Counted from the first letter of the stretch, positions 17,132-36,581 are shown. The stretch is 64,000 bases of DNA from Candidatus Altimarinota bacterium (GCA_965231215.1 OZ246423.1:1216001-1280000), one strand, 5' to 3'. Translations and numbers: made by a program. Notes: generated by a model from the sequence alone, not told the origin.

Positions 17132-20100
17132 ATGAAGTTTTTACCCCTATTTACACACTCAAAAAGAACTGATGATTCAGCTCGTTTTTTGGCGTTTGCT
17201 GGGTCTGGAGTAGAGACTGAAGGGGCTGGAGAAGAAAGGGCCTTTTTGCGAGCTCAAGAAAATTTAAAAAACCCATACAAGCTCAGTCAAAAAGACTTAA
17301 AGGTTTTAGAGAAAAATTCTGATTTACTTAATGCGGAAGACAAAAAGCTACTCAATGGCGCTTTAGAGTTTCATCTCAGTATGCTCCAAAAGAACGGAAC
17401 AGAAACTGTTGCCAATAGTTTTGTAACAGGGGTTAAGTTTTCAAAATTATGGAATTTGGTGAGCCCGGCTCTGAGAGTTCAAGTAGAAGGCGTTATGTCG
17501 AGAGACCATGAGCAAGTAAAAGCTATTATGGCTAAACGAAAAGAAAGCCTTTCAACCAATGATCGTATGCATTTATTGAGAATATATAGGCATATGCGAA
17601 CCCAAAAGAATGTAGACAAAAAGCTTTTTGATCAAGTATCTGAAACTATTTTAAAAACGACACAATCTTTGATTGCTGAATATGAAGTTACCTCCACAGA
17701 GCGAGGAATAGAAGCTCTTAATAGAAGCAAAAAATTTCAACTTCAAGATAAAATATTTTTGCTTGAAGCTTCTCAAGTTTTTCCAGAAGTTGAACAGGCG
17801 CAGAGTTTAATCACTGCTGAGCAGAATGCCAAATTGGCTATGCTGTCGGATTCAATCCTTAAGGAAATTATAAAAGACCTAGGAGACGGTCCAGATGGGA
17901 ATAAAAAGTTTAAGCGAGTAGAATACCTAGGTTCTTGGGAAGCGGTAGAGGCTTTAGCTAATGGACAAACTTTAAGTACCGCCCCTGAAAATGTTCGGCA
18001 AACACTCAATAGGTTGGTTCAGGCGAGCCAAACGGCTCAATTTTTACACTGGGCCAAAAACTGGAAAACTTTTAATGGAGGGCTATTCCTACCAGAACAT
18101 GTGAAAGCTTTGCGCTCTATAAAAAAGGATAAAGAAGCTGAGGTTAATGCGGTGCATACGATTTTTGGAGCCGAAAAAGAGATGACCGATAGTGAGTTTC
18201 AAATATTTCTTCAGGAATGGACAGAAGAAAAAGGCGATATCAAGCTTCAAACCAAAGAAAAAGGCGAAGATGACAAAGAAAGCTTTGAAGAAGCTTCTGC
18301 TTTAGATCGAGTAACAGAAGAACAAAAAAAATTAAACGATCCAAGAACTCAATTTGCCGCTTTTAAAACTAAATACGAAGCTATTGAGGCCGAATTAAGG
18401 CCGCTCTTGAGTGAAGATGAAAGCTTTAGAAATGCCTGGGGGGAAGTGCCTCATGAGGCGGTAACCCTTGGAGTAGCTTTAACTAATCCAGACTGGGAAA
18501 CGAGTGCAGAACCATTTGATGACAATATTCTTTCTCAAAAACTTCAAGAAGTACACGAATACGCAAGAAATAAAAGAGGGACACTAGCCGCCTCTAATGA
18601 GGAGGAGGAAAAAGCTAAAGCCAATGACTATCAAAAAGCCTCTGAAATACTTGACAAATTTTCAAGTGATCTCTATGAAGAATCTTATTCTAAAAAGAAA
18701 AAAGAAATAGATGAACAGGCTTCAAAGGTGCGTTCTCAGGCTATGTCTCAAGAAGCTCAACTCAAGGAATATGTGGATCTTATGCAGACAATCCATGGAG
18801 CTCCAGATGAAGCTGGAACACTTTTAGGTCAATACAGTGAAGGACTTAAAACGAGAATAGGCGAAAGACGACTGACTGGTGCTGACATGTCGGTGATTCT
18901 TCAGGATGAAGACGCTTATGAACTTCTAGGTAAAGAATTTTATAGCCATGATTTAATAAATATTATTAGAAATTTTAGAGACCAATTCAAGACCGCTTTG
19001 GTGGATCCAATTATTAATCAGCTAAAGGCAAATCAACCTCTAAATGAAACAGATTTTTTAATTGAACTGGGGCAAAAACTTGAACTTGGATCAATTCTGA
19101 AAAATCCAGACCTTAAACCGGTTATTACAGAGCTCAAATATCAACTCGATGGAACAGAAATCCCTATTAAATCGGTAATAGATGGAATTATGGCGTCCTT
19201 CCGTACTGATATTTGGGAGCAAGTAAGACTCAGCTATCCGGATCTAGTAGGAAGAATCAGTCATAATATTTCAGGGAGAGCCAAAACCATTTTAGATATA
19301 GAAAAAGCTACAGCTGGAGAGCGACATCTTCATGAAGTAATGTCTCGATATGAAAGAGCGCATCAAGGACTTTATGATCACGAAGCAATTCAAAAAGGAA
19401 TGGATGCGGTAGGGGATTATCGGAGGAAACTTTCGAGTGATCAAAGCGAACTAAATCGAATAAAACAAGCTACAAACAAGGCTCTTGGAGGGGCTTCAAA
19501 ACAAAAAATTGCCTCTTATTTAAATGCTTATATTCCAGCAGTGCCTGTAGAAAAAATACATCAAGCCTTAGATTCCGTTACACATACAGACATTATTGCT
19601 GGAAACAATGAAACCCTTTTGAGTCAGCTACAGGCTCAACTGCCAGAGTTGGGGCCATTACTTCAATACAGGCCAGATAAAAAAGATGAAATCCTTACTG
19701 AACTTGGGAAATTAGTAGTTCGTGAAGGCGCTGCACAGGCTTTTGATAAAGCCATTGAATCCAGTAGTTACAACCTCAATGAAGGGAATGATAAATTTCT
19801 TGGAACCAAAGTTCTGTCTGAAATGGCTTTACAATTAAGTCCCTTTATACAAGAGGCTAATATTCTACAAAAAAGGCTAGATTATCACCTCTTGACGATG
19901 CAAGATCGTCTCAAAAGAGGGGAGCACTTCACGGGAGCGCAGCTTCAAGCTGAGTTCGTTAAACCGGTTGAAGATCAAGTAGTAAATAGACTTGATCTTA
20001 TAGGAAGAGAAGCCGCCCAAATTCTAAATGATCTTTTTCCAGAGTATAAAGAGCGTTTTAACGACAGGTATCTCAAAACCTTTAATGAAAAATTAGATCT

Positions 20101-22456
20101 TTTAAAAGAACACTTAAATAGTTGTTCTCAAGCCTACGCCAATAGTCAGATGGATGGAGTTTCAGGGATAGAAGACTTGGAAGAAATTAGAAAAGTCTTT
20201 ATGGGCGTCGCCGGATCTTTAGATTTAGGTAAAGATCGGTGGGGGGGCGTGGTAGGAGCATTGAAAGACACGCATAAACATATTCCAGAAACAGCTCAAT
20301 TCCTAGACGATGAGTTAGGACTTTTAAAACCTGGAGGATACGAAGAAGCTAAAAGGAATTTTGAAAAAGAGCAAGCCAAAGCCAAACAGGAGGCAGAAGC
20401 TTTTTTTGCTTTAAGTAATGAAGTTTTACAAATTTGGGAAAAAGATATCAAAGAAATTGATGATAAAAAATTTAAACTGCTATATCACGTGGATAAGCCT
20501 ACGATGATGAAATATCTAGATGATTATCAAAATTTAACAGAAGATATAGTGGAAGGGTTTTATAACCCCTTTCTCAAGGATGGAGATTTTTTTCCGCAGT
20601 GGTTTCAGAGATATGCTGATCCAGATCAACAAATTCAAGCCATCAATGATATGAATTTCTTTCATGAATGGAAAGATTATATGTTTGAGAAGCCTTATTA
20701 TGAAAAAGCTAAAGAAGGGTTATTAGATTTTAGAAAAGGATACAAAGAAAACAGAAAGGCTGTGGATATAGGGGCTTTTGATCATTTAGTAAGACGCCCT
20801 TGGCGGTTTTTGAAAAGCATTCGTTATGAAAATGGAGCTACTTTGCTCAGTATCTATCATGTTATTATAGAGGTTTATGAGCTTACAGGGAAGCGGTGGG
20901 AACGCACCAAAGATCGTCGTAAAGCCTGGCTGGGGTCTAAACTTTTTGGTGATACTGCCTGGGGGAAAGAATTCCAACGAGTAGCCAATGAAAAAGAACA
21001 AGAACGGATTGAAGACTACAAGCGTATTCATCAAAAAGCTAATTACCAAGTGCTACAAGAACGAATGAAAAACCCAGGGAATCAAGATGAAGCTCGGGCA
21101 GTGATAGAACTCATGATAGAAAAAGGATATCTTCGTTGGGATGATCCAGAATTTCTTAGAATGCTTATGCGATTTCAGCATGGGGTACGGTTTAATCTTC
21201 CAGAAGATATTGAAAACTATGTAGAAAATCCGGCCGGTCTTAAACTGAAAATTGGTGATGCCGTAAGTGTGATTTGGGATCAGCCAACCTGGCTTAATTG
21301 GAAAGCCGATATGACCTCCAAGTACGAATCAGAAATGGGAAAACACAAAGCCGATTACCGTGAAGAGGTACAGAAGGGGAGTGTAGATGCTTATTTAAGT
21401 GATATGTTAGAAAAATGGGCTTTAGGAGAAATTGATGAAAATTTTGAACGAGCAAAATTTGAAGCTTATATCTATGAAGCCTTTGATAATGGAGAAATGA
21501 ACGGATACCCAGCAGGGGATAGACGGTGGTTTTATCTAATTAAAGGCCTCACTACCAAACTGGGGGGAACCGGAGAAACTATCTTGAGTACAGATGCTCT
21601 TTCACGTCTTGGGAAACTTCAAGGGAAAATGCCTTATACCGATGCTTTTGATGATGGAGTTGGCTGGAAACTCAATGGAAAAGTAGTGCCAGAAGGGACT
21701 CCTGGAGCCCATCAAGGATCTTGGGATTACAATGATATTCAACACTGGAATAAATATTTTGACCATATCAGTGGGTTTAATGGAACCCCTGAAGAAGTAA
21801 CGGTAGCGGTTCGAAGATGGCTTAATGATTCACTAGTGCCCACCTTTGATGCACAGGATCGTATGGGGAAAGTACAATTAACCGATATTGATAGGGATGA
21901 CGCTGGAATACTTCCGTTACTGCTTTCCCCAGAACGGTTAAGATCAGTGCTTGTCTTTGCCTCTGGGGATAAACGCCCAGTAGATGATAAATATTATGTT
22001 CAACTCTTGGATAGTTTTGAAAATAATCTTAAAGATACAATCCATAATTATAGAACATTTGAAAAAAATTATGAAGACTCTGAAGGGTATGACGAACTGA
22101 AACAGACAAACCTACTCCGTATTGGGCAAATGCTGAGAAACTATTTCCTAATGAGCCAAACTATGGCAGGAAACTGGGATGCTGAGTCTCATGTAGGAGC
22201 GGTAGTTTTGAGTGATATTGAATGGGAAAAAAATAAACTTGATGAAAAATATAAAAATATTGTGGGAGTTGTGGGAAAACTTTTTGGAGATGATGGAGAA
22301 GTAACTTCGCTTGTAGATGTACACAATAAAGAACAAGAGCCCTCTAAACATAAGGATAAATCTATTCAGTATACAGCCGATAAAGTAAAAAAAATCTATG
22401 AAGATACTAGGTTCACTGACCTAGGGCTGATAGAGAACTTTATAAAAAATATTTAG
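17132..22456 (+). CDS. Giant alpha-helical hypothetical protein (1774 aa)
   Basis: 5.3 kb ORF, E/K/L-rich, own TGGTATAAT promoter; no recognised domain. Confidence 0.85.
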   Translation: MKFLPLFTHSKRTDDSARFLAFAGSGVETEGAGEERAFLRAQENLKNPYKLSQKDLKVLEKNSDLLNAEDKKLLNGALEFHLSMLQKNGTETVANSFVTGVKFSKLWNLVSPALRVQVEGVMSRDHEQVKAIMAKRKESLSTNDRMHLLRIYRHMRTQKNVDKKLFDQVSETILKTTQSLIAEYEVTSTERGIEALNRSKKFQLQDKIFLLEASQVFPEVEQAQSLITAEQNAKLAMLSDSILKEIIKDLGDGPDGNKKFKRVEYLGSWEAVEALANGQTLSTAPENVRQTLNRLVQASQTAQFLHWAKNWKTFNGGLFLPEHVKALRSIKKDKEAEVNAVHTIFGAEKEMTDSEFQIFLQEWTEEKGDIKLQTKEKGEDDKESFEEASALDRVTEEQKKLNDPRTQFAAFKTKYEAIEAELRPLLSEDESFRNAWGEVPHEAVTLGVALTNPDWETSAEPFDDNILSQKLQEVHEYARNKRGTLAASNEEEEKAKANDYQKASEILDKFSSDLYEESYSKKKKEIDEQASKVRSQAMSQEAQLKEYVDLMQTIHGAPDEAGTLLGQYSEGLKTRIGERRLTGADMSVILQDEDAYELLGKEFYSHDLINIIRNFRDQFKTALVDPIINQLKANQPLNETDFLIELGQKLELGSILKNPDLKPVITELKYQLDGTEIPIKSVIDGIMASFRTDIWEQVRLSYPDLVGRISHNISGRAKTILDIEKATAGERHLHEVMSRYERAHQGLYDHEAIQKGMDAVGDYRRKLSSDQSELNRIKQATNKALGGASKQKIASYLNAYIPAVPVEKIHQALDSVTHTDIIAGNNETLLSQLQAQLPELGPLLQYRPDKKDEILTELGKLVVREGAAQAFDKAIESSSYNLNEGNDKFLGTKVLSEMALQLSPFIQEANILQKRLDYHLLTMQDRLKRGEHFTGAQLQAEFVKPVEDQVVNRLDLIGREAAQILNDLFPEYKERFNDRYLKTFNEKLDLLKEHLNSCSQAYANSQMDGVSGIEDLEEIRKVFMGVAGSLDLGKDRWGGVVGALKDTHKHIPETAQFLDDELGLLKPGGYEEAKRNFEKEQAKAKQEAEAFFALSNEVLQIWEKDIKEIDDKKFKLLYHVDKPTMMKYLDDYQNLTEDIVEGFYNPFLKDGDFFPQWFQRYADPDQQIQAINDMNFFHEWKDYMFEKPYYEKAKEGLLDFRKGYKENRKAVDIGAFDHLVRRPWRFLKSIRYENGATLLSIYHVIIEVYELTGKRWERTKDRRKAWLGSKLFGDTAWGKEFQRVANEKEQERIEDYKRIHQKANYQVLQERMKNPGNQDEARAVIELMIEKGYLRWDDPEFLRMLMRFQHGVRFNLPEDIENYVENPAGLKLKIGDAVSVIWDQPTWLNWKADMTSKYESEMGKHKADYREEVQKGSVDAYLSDMLEKWALGEIDENFERAKFEAYIYEAFDNGEMNGYPAGDRRWFYLIKGLTTKLGGTGETILSTDALSRLGKLQGKMPYTDAFDDGVGWKLNGKVVPEGTPGAHQGSWDYNDIQHWNKYFDHISGFNGTPEEVTVAVRRWLNDSLVPTFDAQDRMGKVQLTDIDRDDAGILPLLLSPERLRSVLVFASGDKRPVDDKYYVQLLDSFENNLKDTIHNYRTFEKNYEDSEGYDELKQTNLLRIGQMLRNYFLMSQTMAGNWDAESHVGAVVLSDIEWEKNKLDEKYKNIVGVVGKLFGDDGEVTSLVDVHNKEQEPSKHKDKSIQYTADKVKKIYEDTRFTDLGLIENFIKNI

Positions 22457-23784: not shown

Positions 23785-24441
23785 ATGAAAAAAATACTGG
23801 TTGTTTCTAGCTATATTCCAAAACCTGGATTTACCTATCCAAAAGGTTTTGAGTGTCCACTGTTACATCAAAATTATGCTCATGCACAAATACGTGGGAT
23901 GTCTAGATTTTTTGATGTTCCCATTGATTGGGAAATTCTTCCCGCTAATAAATATGATTATCAAGGGCTAAGTCAGCACTTTTTTTCAGACCAATATGAT
24001 GGGATTGTTTTAAGTGGTTCTCCTTACTTGTTAAGAGAATCAGAACCCTGGATTTTAAATCTAAGAATGATCTGTGCAGAATTCTTGCAAACTCCAAACA
24101 AACCTATTGTAGGAATTTGTTTTGGAGCACAACTTTTGAATGTTGCCTCAGGGGGAAACGTTGACTCTAGGGGATCGATCCTATGCGGCGAGAAATTTAT
24201 TAAAATGACCCAGAGTACCAAAAAAATTAAAACGCGTGTCTATCATGAGAATTTCTTAACTCAAATTCCCCAGAATGCTAAAATTTTAGCTACTGGACCA
24301 GAAGGTATGCCCTACATTGTTGAGTTTGATGCAAATGTAGTAGGGATTCAAAGCCATCCAGAATTGGAACTAAAAGACGAAACAGAAAACAGAAACGCTA
24401 ATGTTTTTTGGAAACAATTTTTTGCTAAACTTGATTTTTGA
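23785..24441 (+). CDS. Class I glutamine amidotransferase
   Basis: LSGSP, GICFGAQ, QSHPE catalytic triad. Confidence 0.9.
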   Translation: MKKILVVSSYIPKPGFTYPKGFECPLLHQNYAHAQIRGMSRFFDVPIDWEILPANKYDYQGLSQHFFSDQYDGIVLSGSPYLLRESEPWILNLRMICAEFLQTPNKPIVGICFGAQLLNVASGGNVDSRGSILCGEKFIKMTQSTKKIKTRVYHENFLTQIPQNAKILATGPEGMPYIVEFDANVVGIQSHPELELKDETENRNANVFWKQFFAKLDF

Positions 24442-24484: not shown

Positions 24485-24512
24485 AGTTAACACAATTTAT
24501 ATTGTTTTAATT
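24485..24512 (+). repeat. attL: dif-like 11-6-11 site
   Basis: agttaacacaa-tttata-ttgttttaatt; the arms are inverted repeats (9/11); the last 17 bp recur at 34132-34148. Confidence 0.75.
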
Positions 24513-24566: not shown

Positions 24567-24857
24567 ATGAAAGACAAAGTTCTTTCTTCTCTCGCTTCCG
24601 TTCGGGCTAAAGCCTTTGCCATTCCTATGATGTTTGGTTTAGGTCTTCTTGGTGTAACCTATGCCCAATCCGCACCACCAGCCTCACTTATCACCTTGAG
24701 TGATACTGAGGAAACTGCTCTCTTCGATATTTATACCCAAGTTCTTGCTTGGCTTAAAGCTTTCGTTGTTGAGTTCAATTTGGTTATCGCAATCGTTATT
24801 GCGACAATCATTATTCTTGGCTTTATGTCACGATTCACTCGAAGAAAACGAGTTTAA
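24567..24857 (+). CDS. Putative major coat protein (pVIII-like)
   Basis: 33-aa signal ending TYA|QS, acidic N-terminus, amphipathic then hydrophobic helix, basic C-terminus RFTRRKRV; ~63 aa mature. Confidence 0.8.
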   Translation: MKDKVLSSLASVRAKAFAIPMMFGLGLLGVTYAQSAPPASLITLSDTEETALFDIYTQVLAWLKAFVVEFNLVIAIVIATIIILGFMSRFTRRKRV

Positions 24858-24979: not shown

Positions 24980-25213
24980 ATGAAAGTCGAATTTTCCATC
25001 ATCCATCAAAAGGATATGGGTGAGAAAACCATGTTTTATTGCCTTGATCCTGATAGCGAAGTTGTCGCTATTAAAATTGATAACTCTTTATTGAAGAAAT
25101 TTTATGATGAATCTAAAAAGCTTATTTCTCTTTCTTACCTAGAGATTAAGCGTATCCGCAAGCCAGACTTTGGCTTTGTTAGTCAGGTGGGTATTTATGC
25201 CCCTAAAAACTAG
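24980..25213 (+). CDS. Small soluble phage protein (possible ssDNA-binding pV analogue)
   Basis: 77 aa, beta-strand-like pattern, located in the prophage; function inferred only. Confidence 0.55.
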   Translation: MKVEFSIIHQKDMGEKTMFYCLDPDSEVVAIKIDNSLLKKFYDESKKLISLSYLEIKRIRKPDFGFVSQVGIYAPKN

Positions 25214-25258
25214 TTCACACTCTTTTGCTTGTGTGTGTATTTTTAACCAATTTTGAGA

Positions 25259-25501
25259 ATGCAAGACCTTATTAACAATTTCGATTTTTTCGAGATCACG
25301 GTATCTCCCTTTGAGAACATCTTGTATTCTCAATTTTTGGTTGATTTCCTATTTAACGGTGAATTTGTTTATTTGTTTGCTAACTTATTTATTTTAGCCT
25401 TTATTTTTTCTCTTATCTCTCTCGTTCCAATTGTCATTATGCTTTTCTTTAAATGGCTCTTTTGGGACTGGATTGCTTTTTATTTACATAAAGTTTTTTA
25501 A
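25259..25501 (+). CDS. Small hydrophobic phage protein (minor coat candidate)
   Basis: ~80 aa with a long TM stretch; stop overlaps the next start (TAATG). Confidence 0.6.
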   Translation: MQDLINNFDFFEITVSPFENILYSQFLVDFLFNGEFVYLFANLFILAFIFSLISLVPIVIMLFFKWLFWDWIAFYLHKVF

Positions 25502-26352
25502 TGAAGTCTTTTTTTGACTCTTTATCATATCAGTTATTGCTGGTTTTTATACTAGTTCTTTTTTTCGTTGGGCATCCCGTTTCTAAAGTGAATGCTCAAT
25601 CTCCTAATTGTTCTTCTGATCCTAATATTGGTGTTTCTGGTTGTACTCAATCTGAGTGTTCTTCTCTCGGTGCTTACTGGAATGGCTCATCCTGTGAACC
25701 TGCTGTTTTGGGATGTACAAACTCTAATTCTACTAATTATTCCTCAAATGCTAACACTAATGATGGTTCTTGCTCTACTTGTAATACTATTGATAGGTCT
25801 GGGTGTTCCCAATCCGGTTGTTCAAGTACTGATGGTTTCTGGGATACTTCTGATGTTAGTAACCCTTATTGTCGTGCTAATACACAAGGCTGTACTGATA
25901 TAAATGCAGTAAATTATGATTCTTCTGCCACGACCAATGACGCATCTTCCTGTCTTTATTGTGAGCCTGATGATCCCGGCAATTGTCAAGATCAATCTTC
26001 TTGTGAAGGCGTAGGAGGGCTTTGGTACTCAAACACTTCTACTTGTGGTCAAGATGTACCAGGTTCTACTACTGCTCCTGACCCAGAACAATCACAGTAT
26101 TATGCTTCTTCTGCTTCAGCTGGTTACTTTGAAGCTTTTGAATCTCGTTGTGTTTCGCTCGATGAATCATTTGTTTGTGATCGCTGGGCTTTTGATTTAT
26201 CAGAAGACTTTTTGAAATTTCATATAAGTAGTATTTACAACTCTATCTATAACGCTGTAGGTACATTACTTATTATCACTCTCTCTTTTTTCTTGGTTGT
26301 TCAAATTTTAAAACGACCGATCAAAGCTATTTTTGGTAACTCTAAATTATAA
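25501..26352 (+). CDS. Cys-rich exported phage protein with C-terminal TM anchor
   Basis: Signal peptide (VNA|QS), two GCT...NY...A..ND..C repeats, C-terminal TM and basic tail. Confidence 0.8.
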   Translation: MKSFFDSLSYQLLLVFILVLFFVGHPVSKVNAQSPNCSSDPNIGVSGCTQSECSSLGAYWNGSSCEPAVLGCTNSNSTNYSSNANTNDGSCSTCNTIDRSGCSQSGCSSTDGFWDTSDVSNPYCRANTQGCTDINAVNYDSSATTNDASSCLYCEPDDPGNCQDQSSCEGVGGLWYSNTSTCGQDVPGSTTAPDPEQSQYYASSASAGYFEAFESRCVSLDESFVCDRWAFDLSEDFLKFHISSIYNSIYNAVGTLLIITLSFFLVVQILKRPIKAIFGNSKL

Positions 26353-26353
26353 A

Positions 26354-29300
26354 ATGAAAGCTTTTTTTTATCGTGCTTCGAGCAAAAATTTTCTAAAAAA
26401 TTTTTTGAGAAGTGCGAAACTTTGTCTTTTCGCGCTTCCGCTACTTTTCTCCGTTGCTTTTGCTTACCCTGTAAATAAAAGTAATGGTCAGACTACTATT
26501 TATCAGGGGTCTACTGTTAATTTTTTAGTCAGTACTTCTGATTTAGGTTTTACTCCTGCTGGTATTACTTGGTGGAGTGATTACTATTCTACTTCTCCTC
26601 GTTATGGAGATATTGTCGGTGGTTATGTTTATATTGATGGCGTACAATATGGCACTTCAAGCATATATTTCCCGGGCTTTGGTTTGCCTGTGACTTACAA
26701 TACTACAGGGGCTAAAATTCCTTATTTTTGTTTCCATACTCAAGGTTTAAATCAGCCAGGTGATACTCAAAGCTGTTTTACTTATAACTCGAACAATGGG
26801 GACCTTCCTACTAACAGTTATATAAATGTTATTTCTTATTCGGCTGGTAACCCTGATTTAAAGGTTAATGTGAAAAATATGGTTGATGGCTCTTTGTTTG
26901 AGCCAGGTGAAAACTTCCGATATGTGATTGAGGTTCAAAATGATGGTGGTGTAGAGTTAGGAACAACTCCTAGGATTCAATTCTATTGGAAAAAGGACAA
27001 TCGTTCTTATACACCTGAATATAAGTTTGGTTTTCTTGAACTTCCCAACCTCTCTGCTGGTCAAAAGAAACAGTACCTTTTAACCTTTCACGTTCCTGAT
27101 AATATTCCCGGCGGGAAATACTATTTATACTACGCTTTAGACTCCTTAGCCGAGGTTACTGAATCTTATGAAAATAATAATCGGTATTACGAGGAAATTA
27201 CTGTTTTAGATACTGATCCAGTTTATGCTGAACTTTTCAATGATTCTTCCTTAACTCAGCTTTCTACAACTACAGTTCAGCCCGGTCAAACTCTCCGATA
27301 TTACCCTTATTTTCGTAATACTGGTGATATTGATGCTAACTCCTTTCGTATACAATTTTATTGGCAAAAGGATACTCGATCCTATCAAGATCAATATAAA
27401 TTTGGTTATGCGACTGTTCCGGGAATTGTAAAACAAGGAGTTTACACAAAAGAGTATGTTTTTAATATCCCTGAACATACTCCACCAGGCACCTATTATC
27501 TTTACTATGTGATAGATTCTTTAAATCAGGTAGATGAAAATAATGAAAACAATAATCGTTACTATGCAACGATTACAGTTGAAGATGATACCGCTAACAA
27601 TAAACCCGATTATATAAATGACACCGGCCAAAGCGCTATATCTTCACAAAATTTAAATCCCGGTGATACTTTTTATTACGAACCTTATTTTTTAAATGTA
27701 GGTAATGCAGATGCTACTCGAGATGCTAGTGTCTATTTCTATTTTGGGAAAGATCGTATTTATGATTATGACTATCTTTTTGCAACTTCAACTATCCCCT
27801 CTCTTAATAGAGCACAGGCTCATAATCCAACCTTAAATTTTACTGTTCCACAGTATACACCACCAGGTACCTACTATCTTTACTATGAGATAGATTCATT
27901 TGATCAAATTGCTGAAGAAAATGAAAACAATAATCGTTACTACATTGAACTAACGATTAATTCAGACAATCAAACATCTTTGCCTGATCTTTTGGTGAAT
28001 GAATCATCTTCCCCAATTGATACTACTGTTTTTTTCCCCGGTAAGATATTTCGATACTACCCTACCTTTGTTAATGCCGGTGAAACTGCCTTAACCCGTT
28101 CTTTTCGTGTTTCTTTTTACTTGGAACCAAGTTCTAATGGGCAGAGTTTTCACTCTGATTTTTACCTTGGAAAAGCTGATGTAATCCCACTGGTTGCCGG
28201 TCAAACAAAACAGTACACTTTGACTTTTAAAGTCCCTGAAGATTATTCCCCGGGAAATTATAATTTTTATTATAAAATCGATTCTCTAGATCAAATTTCA
28301 GAGGAGGATGAAAATAACAATCATTACTCTATTTCTCTGGTTATTGATGATCTGTCCGGGGTTCAAGGCTGTACTGATCCAGATGCTTTAAACTACGATT
28401 CTTCTGCTGAGGTTGATGATGGCTCTTGTGTTTTGCCTGGTAAAAATTTATTTGCTTCTTTCCCAGCTTTTGACTTGAACATATTTGAAAGTGAGCCTCC
28501 GAATTATAATCAAGGAGACACTTTTAGTTTTTTCGTTGATATCTTTAATGATGGTACAGTCGATACTGAACCTACTACTATAAATTTTTATGTTAATCAT
28601 TCGGATGTTTCAGCCTCTCAACGATATTCTTCAAATTTAATAAATACCGAGTCTGTTCCCGCCTTGGTCGCTGGTGATACATCTTTTTCTAGCTTTTCTT
28701 ATACGGTTCCAGGTAATTTTCTTCCAGGTACTTATATAATTTCTTGGTCTCTTGATCCCAATAATCTCATTTCAGAAACTAATGAATCTGACAATAAAGA
28801 TTTTGCAATTTTTACTGTTGGTGATCCAGATGGAAATGTAGTTATATCTGGTTGTACCGATCCTTATGCGTCAAATTACAATCAATCGGCAAATGATGAT
28901 GATGGTACTTGTTTCTATGATGATGATTCAGGTGATAATTATTATTCAGAGCCTCCTGCTGATGATGTTTCTTTTACAGACTATGAAAATGAGTGGTGGG
29001 GTGACTACTTCCAAGGTGATTTACAAGATGACATAGATCAAAACTACAATTTAGATGTTGAAGACTATTTTGCAGATGCTTCTTCTGAGTCTTGTACTTT
29101 AAAAATTGGTGTTGCTGATACCACTGTTTTGTCTGATATAAAATTTGTCACTCATGTTTCGAGTTTAAGTAAAATTCTACCACTATCTTCTCCCGTTTCC
29201 TCTACCGGAAATTTTCAAATGTGTAAAGATGGTTTTTGTTCTGCCAATTTTACCGCTAATCTGACTGGCTATGTAGAATCTGGTCTTTATGCTCGTAAAA

Positions 29301-30922
29301 CAAGTAATATTGTAGCTTTTAATCCGTCTGCTTATGGATGGTCACATGGTACTATAGACTACACTTATACAACTGGTAGTTGTACTTATACCGGCTCTTT
29401 TGAGTATGTCCCAAGTAGCTACTTTGTTCCAGGTTGTACCTCTGTGAATGCAGAAAATTATAATGGTTCTGCAACTGTCGATGATGGTTCTTGCCGTTAT
29501 CCAAAAGAAGGGTGTCTTGATCCCGACGCTCTCAATTATGACCCCACAGCAACAATAGCGAGCAACGAAGCCTGTACCTATACCCCCTCGGCGGATTCTT
29601 CTTTCGGGTTTTCTATCGCGGATGGCTATGTTATCCCTGTTGGGAAGTCGTTTAAGGTCAATTACTGGTTTAATATTGATGAAATTGACTTTACCCCAGA
29701 AGAAGCTCGTTTTTACAAAGATTATCGTTTACAAACCTACATTTCACAAAAATTATATGAAGATGATCTACTGGACCAACGCGGTCTTGAGATATATGAC
29801 ACTTATGTATCTCGTGGTGAGTTTACACCTCGCCTATGTTTAATTAGTTCTACAGAGTCTAGAACTCTTTGTGTTTTCGTGGATGGCGAACAGAACTCTC
29901 TTTACGCTCAACATGTTACTGTTGTTGAAGACTCAGGAAAAGAGGGATGTTTAAATCCTCTAGCCCAAAACTATGATCCGTTAGTTACAATTTCAGATGG
30001 CTCCTGTATATTCTCGGGTTCCTCATCTACTCGCTTTTTTGGCAGAAAGTTTCAAACAGTTTTTGATACTGACCACTTAGAGGTTGATTTTTCTACTGAG
30101 AGAATTGAGGGTAAATGGGTTCAGTCTCTTGATTTTCCTAGTTTTGGTCCAACTCCAAATTTAGATTATGATGCATACCTTTGTTATACAAAAATTAACG
30201 AGGAACTTGATATAGAAGTACCAGAAGTTTGTGTTAAACTTGATTCCTTCGCTTATACAGAAGTTTCAGGACAATTAGAACTCCCCTTGCCTTCGAATTT
30301 CCAAGCAGAAGCTAACGCTTGTACAGATCAACAAGTTTTTAGAAGTTTCTATGTTCGCCATGTTTCTAACCCAAATGATCGGGTCGAAATGAATTTTTAC
30401 AATTCTTGGGAATCTGATACTCCTCAACAGTTGCCTAGTTCTCTCTGTTCACAGAATTCTGATATCTCGATTTATATTGATCCAGATGATGAGAATGCTT
30501 CTTCTCTGGGGATATTTGGTTTAAAAGATATAAATTTTGATCTTCCCGACTCAACACCAGCATTTTTTCAGTTTTTGGTTAAAGGCTATTCTGTCGAAAT
30601 TCCATATGTAAATTTTACTTTTAGCATTCCTGGCGTGGAATCTTTTTTAAGAGGGTTGTTTTGGTTTGGTAGCTTTACCTTTAAGCTTTTTGAGCAAATT
30701 CCATTCGTTGGTGATGTCTATAACTTAATGGCTCCAGTGCCATCCGCACAACTAAATTTTCCTCAAGTATTTTTTGGCGTAGAACTTGATAAACCTTCTT
30801 ACAATTCTGTTCAGTATGCTCGATTTGGTGATGATTTTTCGGACTTTTTTGAAAACTTAATTTGGTTTGTGCTAACTTTGTACTTTTTATCACTTCTTTT
30901 TTCCTATTTCTTTAAAACTTAA
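26354..30922 (+). CDS. Giant adhesin/attachment protein (pIII position): about 5 CARDB-like Ig domains plus 5 GCTD-type Cys repeats, C-terminal TM
   Basis: Signal peptide (AFA|YP), repeated PDL...N.G...PG.YYLYY.IDS...E.NENNN units, GCTDPDALNYDSSAEVDDGSC-type repeats; ATG at 26354 follows the previous stop. Confidence 0.85.
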   Translation: MKAFFYRASSKNFLKNFLRSAKLCLFALPLLFSVAFAYPVNKSNGQTTIYQGSTVNFLVSTSDLGFTPAGITWWSDYYSTSPRYGDIVGGYVYIDGVQYGTSSIYFPGFGLPVTYNTTGAKIPYFCFHTQGLNQPGDTQSCFTYNSNNGDLPTNSYINVISYSAGNPDLKVNVKNMVDGSLFEPGENFRYVIEVQNDGGVELGTTPRIQFYWKKDNRSYTPEYKFGFLELPNLSAGQKKQYLLTFHVPDNIPGGKYYLYYALDSLAEVTESYENNNRYYEEITVLDTDPVYAELFNDSSLTQLSTTTVQPGQTLRYYPYFRNTGDIDANSFRIQFYWQKDTRSYQDQYKFGYATVPGIVKQGVYTKEYVFNIPEHTPPGTYYLYYVIDSLNQVDENNENNNRYYATITVEDDTANNKPDYINDTGQSAISSQNLNPGDTFYYEPYFLNVGNADATRDASVYFYFGKDRIYDYDYLFATSTIPSLNRAQAHNPTLNFTVPQYTPPGTYYLYYEIDSFDQIAEENENNNRYYIELTINSDNQTSLPDLLVNESSSPIDTTVFFPGKIFRYYPTFVNAGETALTRSFRVSFYLEPSSNGQSFHSDFYLGKADVIPLVAGQTKQYTLTFKVPEDYSPGNYNFYYKIDSLDQISEEDENNNHYSISLVIDDLSGVQGCTDPDALNYDSSAEVDDGSCVLPGKNLFASFPAFDLNIFESEPPNYNQGDTFSFFVDIFNDGTVDTEPTTINFYVNHSDVSASQRYSSNLINTESVPALVAGDTSFSSFSYTVPGNFLPGTYIISWSLDPNNLISETNESDNKDFAIFTVGDPDGNVVISGCTDPYASNYNQSANDDDGTCFYDDDSGDNYYSEPPADDVSFTDYENEWWGDYFQGDLQDDIDQNYNLDVEDYFADASSESCTLKIGVADTTVLSDIKFVTHVSSLSKILPLSSPVSSTGNFQMCKDGFCSANFTANLTGYVESGLYARKTSNIVAFNPSAYGWSHGTIDYTYTTGSCTYTGSFEYVPSSYFVPGCTSVNAENYNGSATVDDGSCRYPKEGCLDPDALNYDPTATIASNEACTYTPSADSSFGFSIADGYVIPVGKSFKVNYWFNIDEIDFTPEEARFYKDYRLQTYISQKLYEDDLLDQRGLEIYDTYVSRGEFTPRLCLISSTESRTLCVFVDGEQNSLYAQHVTVVEDSGKEGCLNPLAQNYDPLVTISDGSCIFSGSSSTRFFGRKFQTVFDTDHLEVDFSTERIEGKWVQSLDFPSFGPTPNLDYDAYLCYTKINEELDIEVPEVCVKLDSFAYTEVSGQLELPLPSNFQAEANACTDQQVFRSFYVRHVSNPNDRVEMNFYNSWESDTPQQLPSSLCSQNSDISIYIDPDDENASSLGIFGLKDINFDLPDSTPAFFQFLVKGYSVEIPYVNFTFSIPGVESFLRGLFWFGSFTFKLFEQIPFVGDVYNLMAPVPSAQLNFPQVFFGVELDKPSYNSVQYARFGDDFSDFFENLIWFVLTLYFLSLLFSYFFKT

Positions 30923-30924
30923 TA

Positions 30925-31167
30925 ATGGGGACTTTTATAGATTACTTTGTTTCTGTTTTTAAAAAGTTTGTACTTATAACTATTTTTCTGGTTGTTTATA
31001 AAACCTTCTTTGAATCTCATGTTCAACAGCTTTTCGACTTCTTTCAATTTTATTTCTCACTGATATTTCATGGTTTTGGGAAGTATGAAACTTTTAAATT
31101 ACTAGCTGATATATTTTTGCTCTTGTTAACATTGAGGTTTTTCAACTGGCTACTTGCTACTAAATAA
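30925..31167 (+). CDS. Small membrane protein (pVI-like position)
   Basis: 80 aa, hydrophobic, between the pIII-like and Zot genes as in inoviruses. Confidence 0.7.
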   Translation: MGTFIDYFVSVFKKFVLITIFLVVYKTFFESHVQQLFDFFQFYFSLIFHGFGKYETFKLLADIFLLLLTLRFFNWLLATK

Positions 31168-31191: not shown

Positions 31192-31998
31192 ATGTACGGT
31201 TTAACTGGATATTTTGGTTCAGGGAAAACTTTGAATATGACAAAACTTCTTTTAAGAGATCATCAAGAAGGGAGATTTGTTGTTACAAATTATACAACTT
31301 CGTTTTCTAATGTGGTTGTAGGCTCTTTGCCTGAATTCGTAAAAATTTTAGAAGAAATATTTATTCTAAAAAATCATGGAAAGGAAATTGGTGATGTTAT
31401 TTCTCAAGTTGAGAAACCTTCGGGCTTTATATCAAAGTCATTAGGTCGTTCTACCAATTACCAAAAAATTTCAATAGGTCTTGATGAGGCTGGTATTTAT
31501 TTTAACTCTCGAGCATTTGCTGAATGGAAAAATTATCCCTATCTAGTGGATTTTATGCTCCAATGTAGAAAGCTTGATGTTCGTATTTACTATACGGTTC
31601 AACATCCTTTATATGTCGATGTCAATTTTAGACGTGTAACTGAAGTTTGGCGCTTATATAAAAAACTGCCATTTATACCGGCTTCTCATTCTTATGATTA
31701 TGTTCTAGACCCTGAAAATCCTGACTATAGAAATCCAATTGATAAACTTGGAGGTTCTTTTTCTTGGCTTGGAGAGCAAGAGGTTTGGAATTATTACGGA
31801 ACTAAAGAATTGGCTATGAAATATAAGCCAGATGATCTTAAGGAAGATTATCAATTTATATTAAATTCTAAAACTGGTAACTATTTTCGTAGATTACCCA
31901 TTCATCGCAGATTTTTTCCTAATTTTGTCGGTGTTTTTGACCGACCTCAAGCCCGCTCGCGGGCTGTTGGTCGGTTAACTCAGGGAACGACTGAATAA
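31192..31998 (+). CDS. Zot/pI-like morphogenesis ATPase
   Basis: N-terminal Walker A GYFGSGKT, VVTNY, Walker B IGLDEAG.YFNSR, QCRK....YTVQH...VD..FR. Confidence 0.92.
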   Translation: MYGLTGYFGSGKTLNMTKLLLRDHQEGRFVVTNYTTSFSNVVVGSLPEFVKILEEIFILKNHGKEIGDVISQVEKPSGFISKSLGRSTNYQKISIGLDEAGIYFNSRAFAEWKNYPYLVDFMLQCRKLDVRIYYTVQHPLYVDVNFRRVTEVWRLYKKLPFIPASHSYDYVLDPENPDYRNPIDKLGGSFSWLGEQEVWNYYGTKELAMKYKPDDLKEDYQFILNSKTGNYFRRLPIHRRFFPNFVGVFDRPQARSRAVGRLTQGTTE

Positions 31999-32034: not shown

Positions 32035-32187
32035 ATGTCTAAAGAATATAAAACTCCTTCTCAATTTATATCTGATTTTAAATCTACTTCTGATCCAGAA
32101 GAACAACTAAAAATCGCTAAGAGGTATGCAAATCAAAATTATAAAAAAGGTTTGATGCACACCTTTAATAAAAAATTTAATCGTTAA
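32035..32187 (+). CDS. Small basic phage protein (50 aa)
   Basis: MSKEYKTPSQFISDFKSTSDPEEQLKIAKRYANQNYKKGLMHTFNKKFNR; ends 4 nt before the rep start; below the ORF-track cutoff. Confidence 0.5.
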   Translation: MSKEYKTPSQFISDFKSTSDPEEQLKIAKRYANQNYKKGLMHTFNKKFNR

Positions 32188-32191
32188 AAAT

Positions 32192-33160
32192 ATGAAATCT
32201 AAATACCTTTATTTTGGTTTAGACTTTCTTCGTCTAAATTTCAAGTCTAGTTATAAAAATATTAGATTTGATAATTATTTTTCTGGACTATCTGCTAACT
32301 CAAATTTTAAAACGGTAGATTGGTTCGGTCTTACTTTTAACTGTACTTTCACTCAAACCGGTAATAAAAAAATTCTTATATTTAATTATAATGATTTTCC
32401 TGTTTTTGTTTTGGAAGAATTTTTAGATGGTGGGATTAATACTCATACATCTTATGTAATTCAGTTTTATAGTGCTTTTTTTTATATAAAAGAACTGGAT
32501 TTATTTTTGTTCGCTTTTTTAAATTATTATGGTCGTTACTGCTATATAACTCGCTTCGATATAGCTTTGGATGTTCCCTTGTCCATAAGTGATTTCGTTT
32601 CAAAAGGGTATTCTACTAAGTTTCGAAAGGGGGCTAAGTTTGGTTTAAATGAAAATACTGGTGAATTTGAAACTTGGTATCTCGGGGCTAAAGGATGCTC
32701 AAATAAAAAACACTTTATAAGAATCTATAACAAACTTTTAGACTCAAAGAAAAAATCAAAAATGATGCTTTTTTGGCAATACTTTGATTTTGAGGATGTC
32801 ACCAGAATTGAAGTACAGGTTAATTCTCAATCCTGTTCTGTCTTTGGTGCAATACCGGATAATATAACAGATATTAACTTTCTCGGTTCTGTTTTTAAGT
32901 CTTGTGCTGTAAATAAATCAGGCACTATTTTTAATCACTTAGAGGATTTAGATTTTATAAATTCTTCTTCTCTAATTGCTTATAAAAAGCCTAAAAAATC
33001 AGATATTATTGACAAACTTTCTTACGCTAAAACCATGCTTGGCTATGCTCAAACTTTATTGGATCAAGGTTTTGATCCTGTTTTGTTTTTAAGAGATAAT
33101 TTGAAAGATAATCAACCCAAGTATTCCAATGATAATTCCTCCAATCATGTACCAGTTTAG
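32192..33160 (+). CDS. Rolling-circle replication initiation factor (Rep_trans family)
   Basis: GLDFLR, ITRFDIALD, ETWYLG, FIRIYNK, TRIEVQ motifs. Confidence 0.9.
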   Translation: MKSKYLYFGLDFLRLNFKSSYKNIRFDNYFSGLSANSNFKTVDWFGLTFNCTFTQTGNKKILIFNYNDFPVFVLEEFLDGGINTHTSYVIQFYSAFFYIKELDLFLFAFLNYYGRYCYITRFDIALDVPLSISDFVSKGYSTKFRKGAKFGLNENTGEFETWYLGAKGCSNKKHFIRIYNKLLDSKKKSKMMLFWQYFDFEDVTRIEVQVNSQSCSVFGAIPDNITDINFLGSVFKSCAVNKSGTIFNHLEDLDFINSSSLIAYKKPKKSDIIDKLSYAKTMLGYAQTLLDQGFDPVLFLRDNLKDNQPKYSNDNSSNHVPV

Positions 33161-33565
33161 AGGCATTTCTTCGTTATCTTTTAGTTCTAATTTTTCTATT
33201 ATCTCCGATTTCCCGATACACATTATCCTCATATTTGCACATTCTTTTCTTGTATAACTGTCTATTTCCAATGTGGTAAACATTATTCCTTTGTTTATTC
33301 CGTCTCTCAAAAGACAACCTCCTAAACACCTTACTTCTTTAACTGGTAAGGTGTTTAGTTTTTTTGTACCTTTATTCCATTTTTTACATTGTGTGTATAT
33401 TTTTTCTCCTCCAAATTCTGATATGACATCTACTCCCCTATCTCCGAAAGATTTAGTCACATAAATTTTTTTGTGTCCCATTAGCTCTAAAAATTCTTTA
33501 GCAAAAAATTCAAACTGTCTTGGGGTTAGGCTTTTGACTTGTTGGAATGTCTTATATTTAGTCAT
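33089..33565 (-). CDS. Mrr-like restriction endonuclease domain with C-terminal TM helix
   Basis: LTPRQFE...MGH...VTKSFGDRGVDVI...TQCKKW (Mrr_cat D..QxK); tail WYMIGGIIIGILGLIIFQII. Confidence 0.85.
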   Translation of the reverse strand: MTKYKTFQQVKSLTPRQFEFFAKEFLELMGHKKIYVTKSFGDRGVDVISEFGGEKIYTQCKKWNKGTKKLNTLPVKEVRCLGGCLLRDGINKGIMFTTLEIDSYTRKECANMRIMCIGKSEIIEKLELKDNEEMPLNWYMIGGIIIGILGLIIFQIIS

Positions 33566-34043
33566 CTTTGAAAATTGTCCTATACATGTGGTCTATACAT
33601 TTTTCAGCTGTTTTTGATTCTGCCTTTTCGTTCATAAAATCTTTTAAGGCAGTAATTTTTCTTTCGATCTCAGGTGTTTTTTCGATTTGTATGTATTTTT
33701 TACCCATTTTGGTATTTTTTTGAATTTCCCGGATTTTAAAATTAAATCCTTCTTTCCGTATTATATATTCTTTCTTGGTCTTTCTTTCAACTCCATATTT
33801 CTGTTCTCTAAAATCTTCATCATCTATATACGATGTATATTCTCCACAATTTTCACATTTTAACTTCCCTACTTCTTCATCGTATCTTAAATTTTTATGC
33901 CTAAACTCTCTTTCAGGGTAAGGGAATTTATATCTTTCTTTGTAGCATTTTTCGCATCTGGCTTTTACAATATTGATGTTAACCATTTTGTAGGGTTTTA
34001 AGTTTAACAAATCCCTACTAACTGCTTGACGATTATGTGTCAA
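33558..34043 (-). CDS. Zn-ribbon-containing basic protein, possible phage regulator
   Basis: CEKC and CENC pairs; overlaps the start of the Mrr-like gene. Confidence 0.6.
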   Translation of the reverse strand: MTHNRQAVSRDLLNLKPYKMVNINIVKARCEKCYKERYKFPYPEREFRHKNLRYDEEVGKLKCENCGEYTSYIDDEDFREQKYGVERKTKKEYIIRKEGFNFKIREIQKNTKMGKKYIQIEKTPEIERKITALKDFMNEKAESKTAEKCIDHMYRTIFKDD

Positions 34044-34120: not shown

Positions 34121-34148
34121 GAATATTATTGTTTATATTGTTTTAATT
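34121..34148 (+). repeat. attR: degenerate left arm plus shared 17-bp core
   Basis: gaatattattg-tttata-ttgttttaatt; 34132-34148 is identical to 24496-24512. Confidence 0.75.
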
Positions 34149-34720: not shown

Positions 34721-35374
34721 ATGGCAATAAAAAACGTTACCGCAACTCGTATGACTATGCTGGGTCTAAAAAATCAGTCTAGTGTCGCTAAAAGAGGACA
34801 CAAATTACTGAAAGATAAGCAAGATGGTCTCATGCAAGAATTTTTAGCTATTGTGCATAAAGCCAAAGCTCTTCGTATGGAAGTTGAAGTTGCTATTAAA
34901 GCCGCTAATAATAGTTTTTTACTAGCTCAGGCAAGTATGCCAAAAGAAGTATTAGAAAACGTGCTTTCTAATCCTGCACAAAGTCTAAAACTAGAGGTAA
35001 AAACAAAAAATGTAATGTCGGTTCGTATACCGGTATTTCAACTAAAAACAGAAGGAAACGCTCTTCACTACGGTTTAGCTCAAACCAGAGGTGAACTAGA
35101 CCTGGCTATTTCTGAGTTTGCTAAGGTGTTTACCCTGCTACTAGAACTTGCTGAAATTGAAAAAGCCGCTGAAAATTTAGCCCTTGAAATTGAAAAAACT
35201 CGTCGAAGAGTAAATGCGCTTGAACATAGATTAATTCCAGATCTCGAAGACACGCTGAAATTCATCAAGATGAAACTTGGTGAAGCTGAGCGTTCAGCAA
35301 TTGTGCAAGTGATGGCTATTAAGAATATGATTGAAGCTCAAGAAGCTGAAGCTCAAATGAAGCAGGTAGCATAA
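34721..35374 (+). CDS. atpD: V/A-type ATP synthase subunit D
   Basis: TRM.M..LK......RGHKLLKDKQD, NVMSVRIP, EIEKTRRRVNALEH. Confidence 0.95.
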   Translation: MAIKNVTATRMTMLGLKNQSSVAKRGHKLLKDKQDGLMQEFLAIVHKAKALRMEVEVAIKAANNSFLLAQASMPKEVLENVLSNPAQSLKLEVKTKNVMSVRIPVFQLKTEGNALHYGLAQTRGELDLAISEFAKVFTLLLELAEIEKAAENLALEIEKTRRRVNALEHRLIPDLEDTLKFIKMKLGEAERSAIVQVMAIKNMIEAQEAEAQMKQVA

Positions 35375-35396: not shown

Positions 35397-36581
35397 ATGA
35401 AAAGTTTTTGGATGATTCCAGTTTTGAGTATTTTATTTGTTCAGTCTGTTTTGGCTGCAGCGCCTAGCCCTGATCAATATGCCTTTGAACAAAAATTAAA
35501 CTTTGCCCCTGTAAGTACGGAAAAGACCGTTAAAGTAACCCTTAATGAAGATGTACTCAGGCATACCGCTACTGAGTTTGAAAATTTTCAAGTACTTAAT
35601 GATTTGAATGGTGAAGCCGTTTTTGTGCTTCATCCAGAAGCGGCTGGAAAAGTAAAGGAATTCGGGCCTATTAATATTTCTTCTGGAATGAAAGAAACAC
35701 CAGGCAGTAATTTGTTAGACGATAACCGACTTACTGAATTTGCTTTTGATCAAAAAGTAACCTCAGAAGAACCAGCTACTGTATTTATTGATTTTGGAAA
35801 AATCGTGAATCTTCATCGGCTAGAGTCATGGGTGGCAAGTAGAGGGAAAGTTTTGGGAATGGAAATTCGAGGCGGAGTGACCCAAAATAGAATGAAAACT
35901 ATTCGTAGAAAATCCGAGTTTAAGGCTGTGATTGATACGAACTTTCCCCCACTGCAGTTTTTGGAAATTTCATTCTGGGGATCAAGACTCTATTTCGAAG
36001 ATATCCTGTTTTATCAAAAACAATCTGTAGATGTGTATTTTACAGCTCAGCCAGATAGACGGTACCGAATTCTTTATGGTAATCCAAAAATAAAATCTAA
36101 AAGGTATAAGGGGGTCGTACACGAAGCCCAAGAATTTGATATTGAAGCTCGAACCGCCAATGGAACCTTTAATCCCCTAGCGAGTGATGATTTTGATGAT
36201 GATGGGGTTATCAATGAGGAAGACAACTGTTTCTTTGTTTCAAATAAATCTCAAAATGATGAGGATTCAGATGGAGTTGGAGACAAATGTGATAACGCTA
36301 AAGCCGTAAAAAACTTTGCCCAATCTGATGTAGATAATGATGGAATTGGTGATATTATCGATAACTGTAAACTTGAAGCGAATCCAGATCAAAAGGATAA
36401 AGATCGTGACGGAATTGGAGATGTATGCGATGCGGCTCCTGAAACTAAAGATATTAGTGATAAAGCGCATTCAACCTACATACCTAAAAAACCAAACACC
36501 CCCTTCCCTCTTTTTGTGATTTTTGGGTTAATTTTGGCAGCAGCTGGATATTTTGGATATAAAAAATATTTAAAGAAATAG
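35397..36581 (+). CDS. Surface protein with thrombospondin type 3 repeats and C-terminal TM
   Basis: Signal peptide; DNC...N..Q.D.D.DGIGD.CD repeats. Confidence 0.88.
   Translation: MKSFWMIPVLSILFVQSVLAAAPSPDQYAFEQKLNFAPVSTEKTVKVTLNEDVLRHTATEFENFQVLNDLNGEAVFVLHPEAAGKVKEFGPINISSGMKETPGSNLLDDNRLTEFAFDQKVTSEEPATVFIDFGKIVNLHRLESWVASRGKVLGMEIRGGVTQNRMKTIRRKSEFKAVIDTNFPPLQFLEISFWGSRLYFEDILFYQKQSVDVYFTAQPDRRYRILYGNPKIKSKRYKGVVHEAQEFDIEARTANGTFNPLASDDFDDDGVINEEDNCFFVSNKSQNDEDSDGVGDKCDNAKAVKNFAQSDVDNDGIGDIIDNCKLEANPDQKDKDRDGIGDVCDAAPETKDISDKAHSTYIPKKPNTPFPLFVIFGLILAAAGYFGYKKYLKK

Follow-up and report, generated by a model that had tools for sequence, protein, structure and literature searches.

A 1522-residue modular protein in the pIII position of an inovirus-like prophage of a Candidatus Altimarinota bacterium

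A 64,000-nucleotide stretch of a Candidatus Altimarinota genome (GCA_965231215.1 OZ246423.1:1216001-1280000; referred to here as the window, and numbered from its first letter) contains an integrated inovirus-like element, nearly half of which is given over to one gene for a modular protein of 1522 residues, P0001. The gene lies in the slot where filamentous phages encode the adsorption protein pIII. Here we describe the protein and its element, a C-terminal domain that it shares with much shorter proteins in the same slot of related elements, and the roles that it may serve.

Layout of the 1522-residue protein

An initial annotation of the window had described a 1522-residue open reading frame (ORF) at 26354-30922 with a modular layout of immunoglobulin (Ig)-like domains, short repeats, an acidic linker and a terminal membrane helix. 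Both the ORF and the layout are confirmed. The frame is uninterrupted, it runs from an ATG one base past the stop codon of the upstream gene to a TAA stop; a possible earlier start, which would add seven codons, is the in-frame TTG at 26333. The parts of the protein are as follows.

26354-30922, plus strand: the 1522-residue protein P0001 in the pIII slot, an open frame under translation table 11
26354-26464, plus strand: signal-peptide-like N-terminus, residues 1-37 (hydrophobic segment 17-41)
26465-26848, plus strand: orphan N-terminal domain, residues 38-165, without homologue or Pfam match
26849-28357, plus strand: four tandem CARDB domains (1-4) that recur every 375-387 nt (Pfam, DNA repeat and DNA-level matches)
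28367-28429, plus strand: Cys-bounded repeat 1 (GCTDPDALNYDSSAEVDDGSC; repeat and pattern search)
28472-28798, plus strand: CARDB domain 5, the best stretch, residues 707-815 (Pfam and DNA-level match)
28850-28912, plus strand: Cys-bounded repeat 2 (repeat and pattern search)
28913-29092, plus strand: acidic linker (composition)
29432-29575, plus strand: Cys-bounded repeats 3 and 4, side by side (repeat and pattern search)
29945-30007, plus strand: Cys-bounded repeat 5 (pattern search)
30509-30919, plus strand: conserved C-terminal domain, residues 1386-1522, including the membrane helix 1498-1521 (homology to same-slot proteins)

Only two hydrophobic segments exceed the threshold, one at residues 17-41 and the other the C-terminal helix at 1498-1521, and we infer that the signal peptide is cut after AFA (between AFA and YP). 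The domain that follows, residues 38-165, has no match but itself among 5.8 billion proteins, and neither a usable Atlas match nor a Pfam match; it would form the distal end of the protein and is a candidate receptor-binding tip. Pfam CARDB (PF07705) is then matched in five stretches at E 1.4e-51 (173.4 bits, with a cut-off of 22.7), and five DNA-level matches, each above the cut-off, cover residues ~166-278, 303-403, 426-529, 544-659 and 707-815. This domain check agrees with the annotation of the domains as Ig-like.

The short repeats have the form GC....A.NY...A...DGSC, are 20-21 residues long and occur in five copies, with Cys pairs at residues 673/692, 834/853, 1028/1047, 1054/1074 and 1199/1218. 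No Pfam or NCBIfam model covers them, and the NCBIfam search gave nothing above cut-off. The acidic linker is strongly biased in composition, with 21 D/E and one K/R among the 73 residues from 853 to 925. A single-sequence structure prediction of residues 905-1385, which covers three uncharacterised segments between repeats, is unusable (mean predicted local distance difference test score, pLDDT, of 32.7). Beyond the CARDB-type domains there is no Pfam or PHROG match, and the whole protein has no match among PDB sequences or, by tblastn, in 50,697 deposited phage records. The C-terminal 305 residues give a single Atlas lead to a viral cluster, whose sole member with a known phylum belongs to Hofneiviricota, although the score (0.77) is below the reliable range.

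Genes of the element

The genes of the element are tightly spaced and all but two lie on the plus strand. All phage genes end in TAA or TAG, and the genome reads well under table 11. Apart from P0001 the element contains the following genes.

24567-24857, plus strand: 96-residue pVIII-like major coat candidate (sequence features, position)
24980-25213, plus strand: 77-residue ORF, by position a possible DNA-binding protein; no Pfam, PHROG or NCBIfam match
25253-25501, plus strand: 82-residue minor coat candidate, a membrane protein starting at TTG; no Pfam or PHROG match
25501-26352, plus strand: 283-residue secreted Cys-rich protein with a C-terminal membrane helix; no Pfam, PHROG or NCBIfam match
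30925-31167, plus strand: 80-residue, very hydrophobic pVI-like membrane protein (position, hydrophobicity)
31192-31998, plus strand: 268-residue pI/Zot-type assembly ATPase (Pfam Zot, PHROG)
32035-32187, plus strand: 50-residue ORF
32192-33160, plus strand: 322-residue rolling-circle-type replication initiator (Rep) candidate (Rep_trans, sub-threshold)
33089-33565, minus strand: 158-residue Mrr_cat restriction-endonuclease-fold protein (Pfam 1.9e-14)
33558-34043, minus strand: 161-residue zinc-ribbon-like protein (weak Pfam)

The 268-residue ATPase matches Pfam Zot at E 2.8e-5 (24.1 bits, cut-off 20.3) and phrog_1675, 'protein I of M13', at E 8.4e-9. By tblastn against the 50,697 phage records its sole matches are the pI genes of IKe, Erwinia PEar and Vibrio inoviruses, with ~28% identity over residues 1-147. 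The order of the genes for the 96-, 77-, 82-, 283-, 1522- and 80-residue proteins and pI corresponds to VIII - III - VI - I of IKe and of a Vibrio inovirus. As judged from its sequence, the pI ATPase and the inovirus gene order identify the element as an inovirus-like prophage.

The 96-residue protein has a signal peptide, an acidic N-terminus, a hydrophobic core and a basic tail (RFTRRKRV), and its only match is a weak one to phrog_25646 (E 0.025). It has no BLAST similarity to the 52-residue coat candidate of a related element in another genome of the host's family (G014). The 283-residue protein directly upstream of P0001 carries two copies of the same type of Cys-bounded repeat plus further Cys-rich units and is a candidate second tip protein; the two adjacent tip-protein candidates, of 283 and 1522 residues, seem to have been enlarged with the same module. 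At the position of the 283-residue protein G014 has an ORF of only 100 residues, and the alignment between the two has an E value of 0.19.

The Mrr_cat gene is kept on the opposite strand in all three related elements (that in the window, that of G014 and that of a 5.1-kb metagenome contig, L026), and the zinc-ribbon gene in two of them; they could act in regulation, defence or exclusion. The Mrr_cat and zinc-ribbon counterparts lie on the minus strand as follows.

L004 14913-15320 and 15293-15808, minus strand: counterparts in G014
L026 4010-4336, minus strand: counterpart on the metagenome contig

The zinc-ribbon-like protein is 48% identical over 65 residues to its G014 counterpart. Two further ORFs lie outside the element. 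Just downstream, at 35397-36581, is a gene for a 394-residue secreted, C-anchored protein with Asp-rich DxDxDG-type repeats, conserved in one of the same-genus genomes (G004, L019 786-1943), and upstream of the left flank, at 17132-22456, is a 1774-residue ORF without an obvious signal peptide.

A conserved C-terminal domain in same-slot proteins

The elements of G014 and L026 are related to that in the window: their pI proteins are 44-45% identical to that of the window and their Rep proteins 39-41%, the Mrr_cat gene is common to all, and the zinc-ribbon gene is also found in G014. The Rep homologue of L026 (41% identical) matches Rep_trans at 4.7e-5 and Phage_CRI (G2P N-terminal) at 4.6e-4, both under the Pfam cut-offs. 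In both elements the pVI-like gene is immediately preceded by a gene whose product has the C-terminal domain of P0001, the G014 protein being 463 residues long (L004 10842-12233). Residues 1386-1521 of P0001 align by BLASTP with the last ~135 residues of these same-slot proteins at E 4e-5 and 2e-4 for G014 and 7e-11 for L026. At either end the G014 element also has a pVIII-like ORF (L004 9692-9850 and 14649-14924); the cores of the two are near-identical, and they may mark an integration junction or a tandem remnant.

A profile built from the window and G014 C-termini and run against 1.84 billion representative proteins gave ten matches: P0001 itself, the G014 protein, a 173-residue fragment, six full-length metagenomic proteins (P0123-P0127 and P0129, of 520, 568, 587, 626, 663 and 687 residues) and a repetitive 984-residue protein that was discarded as spurious. 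All eight genuine relatives match at their extreme C-terminus, the closest being the fragment (P0122), which comes from a 968-bp contig. The front parts of these proteins are unrelated. CARDB is present in none but P0001, and apart from DUF4215 Cys-rich repeats, which P0124 and the same-slot protein of L026 carry, no Pfam domain occurs in the relatives. The matches define a small, uncurated family of domains, ~135 residues long and ending in a hydrophobic helix, that is found only at the C-terminus of the slot protein. We consider the domain a candidate membrane anchor and virion-incorporation domain. A constant anchor with interchangeable front parts is the pattern expected of a receptor-binding structural protein, and by sequence comparison P0001 is the positional and sequence counterpart of the putative adsorption protein, with a greatly expanded front part.

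The family is rare, with the domain in two of 401 genomes of the class and one of 401 genomes of a phylum sample, the window's own genome being counted in both. Scans of a viral contig collection with pI, a two-sequence pI alignment, P0123 and P0126 found no relative. A model of the domain from a nine-row alignment is mediocre (pLDDT 66.9, predicted template modelling score 0.34) and gave no Foldseek match in the PDB at E <= 0.001, only chance-level rows, and the profile had no match among PDB sequences at E <= 10. Predictions of a complex between the domain and the pVI-like protein scored 0.12 and 0.18, with a mark of 0.32, and count neither way. The pVI-like protein itself is 16-21% identical to its G014 and L026 counterparts, which is not significant.

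Size of P0001

The P0001 gene (4,569 bp) takes up 47% of the 9,636 bp between the ends of the element, consistent with the initial annotation's statement that it fills nearly half the phage genome. That annotation had also placed the gene in the pIII slot, as the gene order and the C-terminal homology to same-slot proteins now indicate, and had set its length against the ~400 residues of Ff pIII. P0001 is 2.2 to 3.5 times as long as every comparator in a comparison covering about a dozen elements. The seven full-length members of its own family have 463, 520, 568, 587, 626, 663 and 687 residues and the L026 protein at least 556, the gIII product of IKe has 434 and that of the slot gene of a Vibrio inovirus 476, and the largest secreted C-anchored proteins of two other inovirus-like elements of the class (G292 and G103), which are candidate analogues, have 665 and 595. 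The length of P0001 is exceptional.

The inovirus-like modules of G292 and G103, which belong to other families of the class, read through in-frame TGA under code 25 (L052 5567-7564 and L053 5706-7493) and are ordered differently, with Rep, pI and small genes followed by the secreted C-anchored protein of ~600-665 residues. Other Zot-family matches in the class (L054-L057) were set aside, having a context that is not inovirus-like or being too short to judge. The class-wide Zot run at E <= 0.001 did not list the pI of the window (4.4e-5 in another scan), so that weak members may be missed.

Boundaries and insertion site

The ends of the element are marked by a 17-bp direct repeat at 24496-24512 and 34132-34148, two copies in the window where 0.03 are expected. 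Each copy lies within a 28-bp att site, and the corresponding empty sites are found in related genomes.

24485-24512, plus strand: attL, a dif-like 28-bp imperfect palindrome whose last 17 nt (24496-24512) are the direct repeat
34121-34148, plus strand: attR, with a phage-derived left arm and with centre and right arm as in attL; direct repeat at 34132-34148
L019 3495-3522, L020 2568-2595, L021 2975-3002 and L022 2987-3014: empty-site palindromes

The attL palindrome has 11-nt arms flanking a 6-nt centre, a layout that we take to be that of a dif site, and is unique in the 1.33-Mb genome with up to six mismatches allowed. In all four same-genus genomes (G001-G004) a single 28-bp palindrome, with conserved arms and a variable 6-nt centre, lies between the same two flanking genes, which are at 23785-24441 (upstream) and 34721-35374 (downstream) in the window and adjacent in those genomes. 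A pI-like protein was not found in any of the four. The element is thus an insertion at a conserved dif-like site.

Pfam identifies no integrase family among the ten largest proteins of the element, and the host genome encodes two tyrosine recombinases, both outside the element. Because there is a dif-like site, no integrase in the element and two tyrosine recombinases in the host, it is plausible that Xer recombinases of the host integrate the element, as they do several known filamentous phages. Lying 48 kb from the maximum of the cumulative GC skew (1,288,697), the site is a candidate for the dif site of the chromosome.

Origin of the modules and the host genome

All five CARDB matches of the host genome lie within the P0001 gene, and a search of that genome with the whole protein finds only itself. 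A loose pattern of the Cys-bounded repeat occurs at nine places, five in P0001, two in the 283-residue protein and two unlike the repeat. CARDB domains 1-4 are 34-42% identical to one another and 24-29% to the best outside arrays, which are mostly in Bacteroidota cargo proteins of the type IX secretion system (T9SS). Since the four domains are closer to each other than to anything outside and show a DNA period of 375-387 nt, the simplest reading is that they arose by tandem duplication inside the gene.

Repeat-only alignments place the Cys-bounded repeat in 244 proteins at E <= 0.001, and surface proteins of Flavobacteriales are rich in it. Dozens of copies of the 20-residue GC...NY...DGSC repeat are found in each of many T9SS cargo proteins of this order (e.g. 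P0003), and none of the proteins scanned has the repeat covered by a Pfam or NCBIfam model. Identity to the Bacteroidota proteins is low, so nothing points to a recent transfer.

The host genome is a single contig of 1.33 Mb, rated 99.3% complete. It has no match to TolA, MotA/ExbB (TolQ), secretin or Omp85, whereas control genomes gave the expected matches, and it encodes five T2SSE-type (pilus-type) ATPases. Two suppositions of the initial annotation are in keeping with these data: that the modules are typical of cellular surface proteins, to judge from the taxonomy of the best repeat matches (Flavobacteriales T9SS cargo), and that the host lacks the usual Tol system, to judge from the missing TolA and TolQ/ExbB matches. 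With no Tol match the pilus-then-TolA route of the Ff phages cannot apply as such. A pIV-type channel would not be needed in this host, and type IV pili are a possible receptor.

Role of the protein

We think it probable that P0001 is the adsorption protein (a minor coat protein analogous to pIII) of an integrated inovirus-like prophage of ~9.6 kb. The protein would be exported through its signal peptide and stay anchored in the cytoplasmic membrane through its C-terminal helix, and the C-terminal domain, together with the pVI-like protein, would place it at the trailing end of the emerging filament. This would leave some 1,350 residues standing out from the tip of the virion, a long modular fibre composed of the orphan distal domain (residues 38-165), four plus one CARDB domains, disulfide-closed 20-residue connectors, the acidic linker and the three uncharacterised segments. 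The distal parts may recognise the host surface or its type IV pili, and entry would have to proceed without a Tol system, since the host genome has no match to TolA, TolQ or an outer-membrane marker. CARDB domains 1-4 would have multiplied by tandem duplication within the gene.

Several points weigh against an adsorption role. The pVIII-like and pVI-like labels derive solely from size, hydrophobicity and position, and the Rep_trans match of the replication initiator candidate (E 0.0088) is under the Pfam cut-off. Neither sequence nor fold similarity to Ff pIII (the N1/N2 and C domains of g3p) was detected, the fold search having used the mediocre model of the C-terminal domain. The secreted and C-anchored 283-residue neighbour could share the adsorption role or hold it. 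The size comparison is not a census, and a second giant version could conceivably stand behind the fragment P0122. Contig sets from three runs of one study, the only listed runs with the region and none of them RNA, contain the integrated form only, with no joints, though contigs cannot prove absence, and no virion, single-stranded DNA or excised circle has been seen so far.

The initial annotation had offered two readings, a new receptor-binding strategy and lysogenic conversion by an adhesin. In the second case P0001 would be mainly a cell-surface adhesin of the lysogen, anchored in the cytoplasmic membrane by the C-terminal helix, exposed in the absence of an outer membrane and altering what the cell attaches to. 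A signal peptide with a single C-terminal helix is the right topology for such a protein, the host genome has no Omp85, secretin or Tol match, and both the CARDB arrays and the Cys-bounded repeats have their best matches in Bacteroidota proteins of the cell surface. However, the C-terminal domain is shared with far shorter same-slot proteins that have quite different fronts, a pattern typically shown by structural proteins whose receptor-binding part varies, and no other gene of the element bears it; we therefore regard a mainly adhesive role as unlikely. An adhesin role and a virion role are compatible, since proteins of the pIII type stay in the membrane until they are assembled. P0001 might accordingly serve twice, as a fibre of ~1,350 residues at the virion tip and as a surface adhesin of a chronically infected cell that lacks an outer membrane and a Tol system, a proposal that we put forward as quite speculative. 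If it were true, the modules of Bacteroidota surface type could point to a partner organism or to the source of the modules.

It is also rather improbable that the element is a defective or domesticated remnant that makes no particles and whose giant gene is kept by the host as a surface protein. The integrated form alone is seen in the contig sets and the element is rare, as the counts of its C-terminal domain indicate, but all expected genes are intact and tightly spaced, both att copies are present, and the element is missing from all four same-genus genomes, which argues for a recent insertion over an old domesticated locus. That the P0001 gene is cargo inserted into the structural module, with the 283-residue neighbour or a small membrane protein as the true adsorption protein, is very improbable: the neighbour is secreted, Cys-rich, C-anchored and near known pIII proteins in size, and the CARDB domains and repeats are cellular in look, but the domain that marks the slot in G014 and L026 sits in P0001, whose gene immediately precedes the pVI-like gene. 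The 283-residue protein does not have it and aligns with the same-position ORF of G014 only at E 0.19.

The element shows the genome plan of the filamentous phages in a small-genome bacterium without Tol or outer-membrane marker matches, with nearly half of its coding capacity devoted to one modular protein in which Ig-like domains are combined with disulfide connectors. Should P0001 prove to be part of the virion, it would offer a defined handle on how filamentous phages enter such cells, and a conserved C-terminal domain with swappable fronts would be a natural display scaffold. The claims are limited at present by the rarity of the family and by their derivation from sequence.

Comparison with known systems

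Searches of the literature found no characterised phage-host system of this kind, and no giant Ig-array adsorption protein of a filamentous phage in work on inoviruses, pIII, Ig-like domains, CARDB and Tubulavirales. Inoviruses have been predicted in Candidate Phyla Radiation genomes (Roux et al. 2019, PMC6813254), and these resemble the element described here in being small, pI-centred and integrated in a small-genome bacterium, with the same markers; the main-text passages of that study that deal with them give neither gene sizes nor the architecture of an adsorption protein. A precedent for CARDB in such an element is IME1 of Dehalococcoides, which is putatively filamentous or budding and encodes a pI-like ATPase as well as a CARDB protein that has a signal peptide or membrane segment (bioRxiv 10.64898/2026.09.15.751708). 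IME1 differs in its host phylum and in having its own tyrosine recombinase, whereas the element in the window has no integrase, and its CARDB protein is a separate conserved gene that the relevant passages of the preprint do not describe as an adsorption protein and for which they state no size.

The modules of P0001 have their closest parallels in Bacteroidota T9SS cargo proteins, which contain CARDB arrays, at 24-29% identity, together with the same Cys-bounded repeat. Those proteins end in the T9SS sorting domain PF18962, whereas P0001 ends in the phage C-terminal domain. Among phages, the elements of G014 and L026 are like that of the window in having a C-terminal-domain protein with pVI-like, pI, Rep and Mrr_cat neighbours, but their same-slot proteins, like the other relatives, have unrelated fronts, contain no CARDB and are under half the length of P0001.

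In textbooks the filamentous phages stand for the minimal virus, whose attachment protein is small, well understood and dependent on a pilus and TolA. P0001 resembles g3p of IKe and the Ff phages in the location of its gene, between the coat genes and gene VI - gene I, and in its make-up of signal peptide, modular front with linkers and C-terminal membrane anchor; its role would be alike. It differs in length (434 residues in IKe as opposed to 1522) and in the lack of detectable sequence or fold similarity. The linkers of Ff pIII are glycine-rich, and in their place P0001 has an acidic linker and disulfide mini-modules. Entry of Ff uses TolA, for which the host of P0001 gave no match.

Filamentous phages that integrate at dif by means of Xer (integrative mobile elements exploiting Xer, IMEX, e.g. 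CTXphi and VGJphi) have no integrase. The element differs from these in that its site is 48 kb from the skew maximum, but it is like them in having no integrase, in its 28-bp imperfect palindrome, of which the arms are conserved and the centre varies, and in the two tyrosine recombinases of its host.

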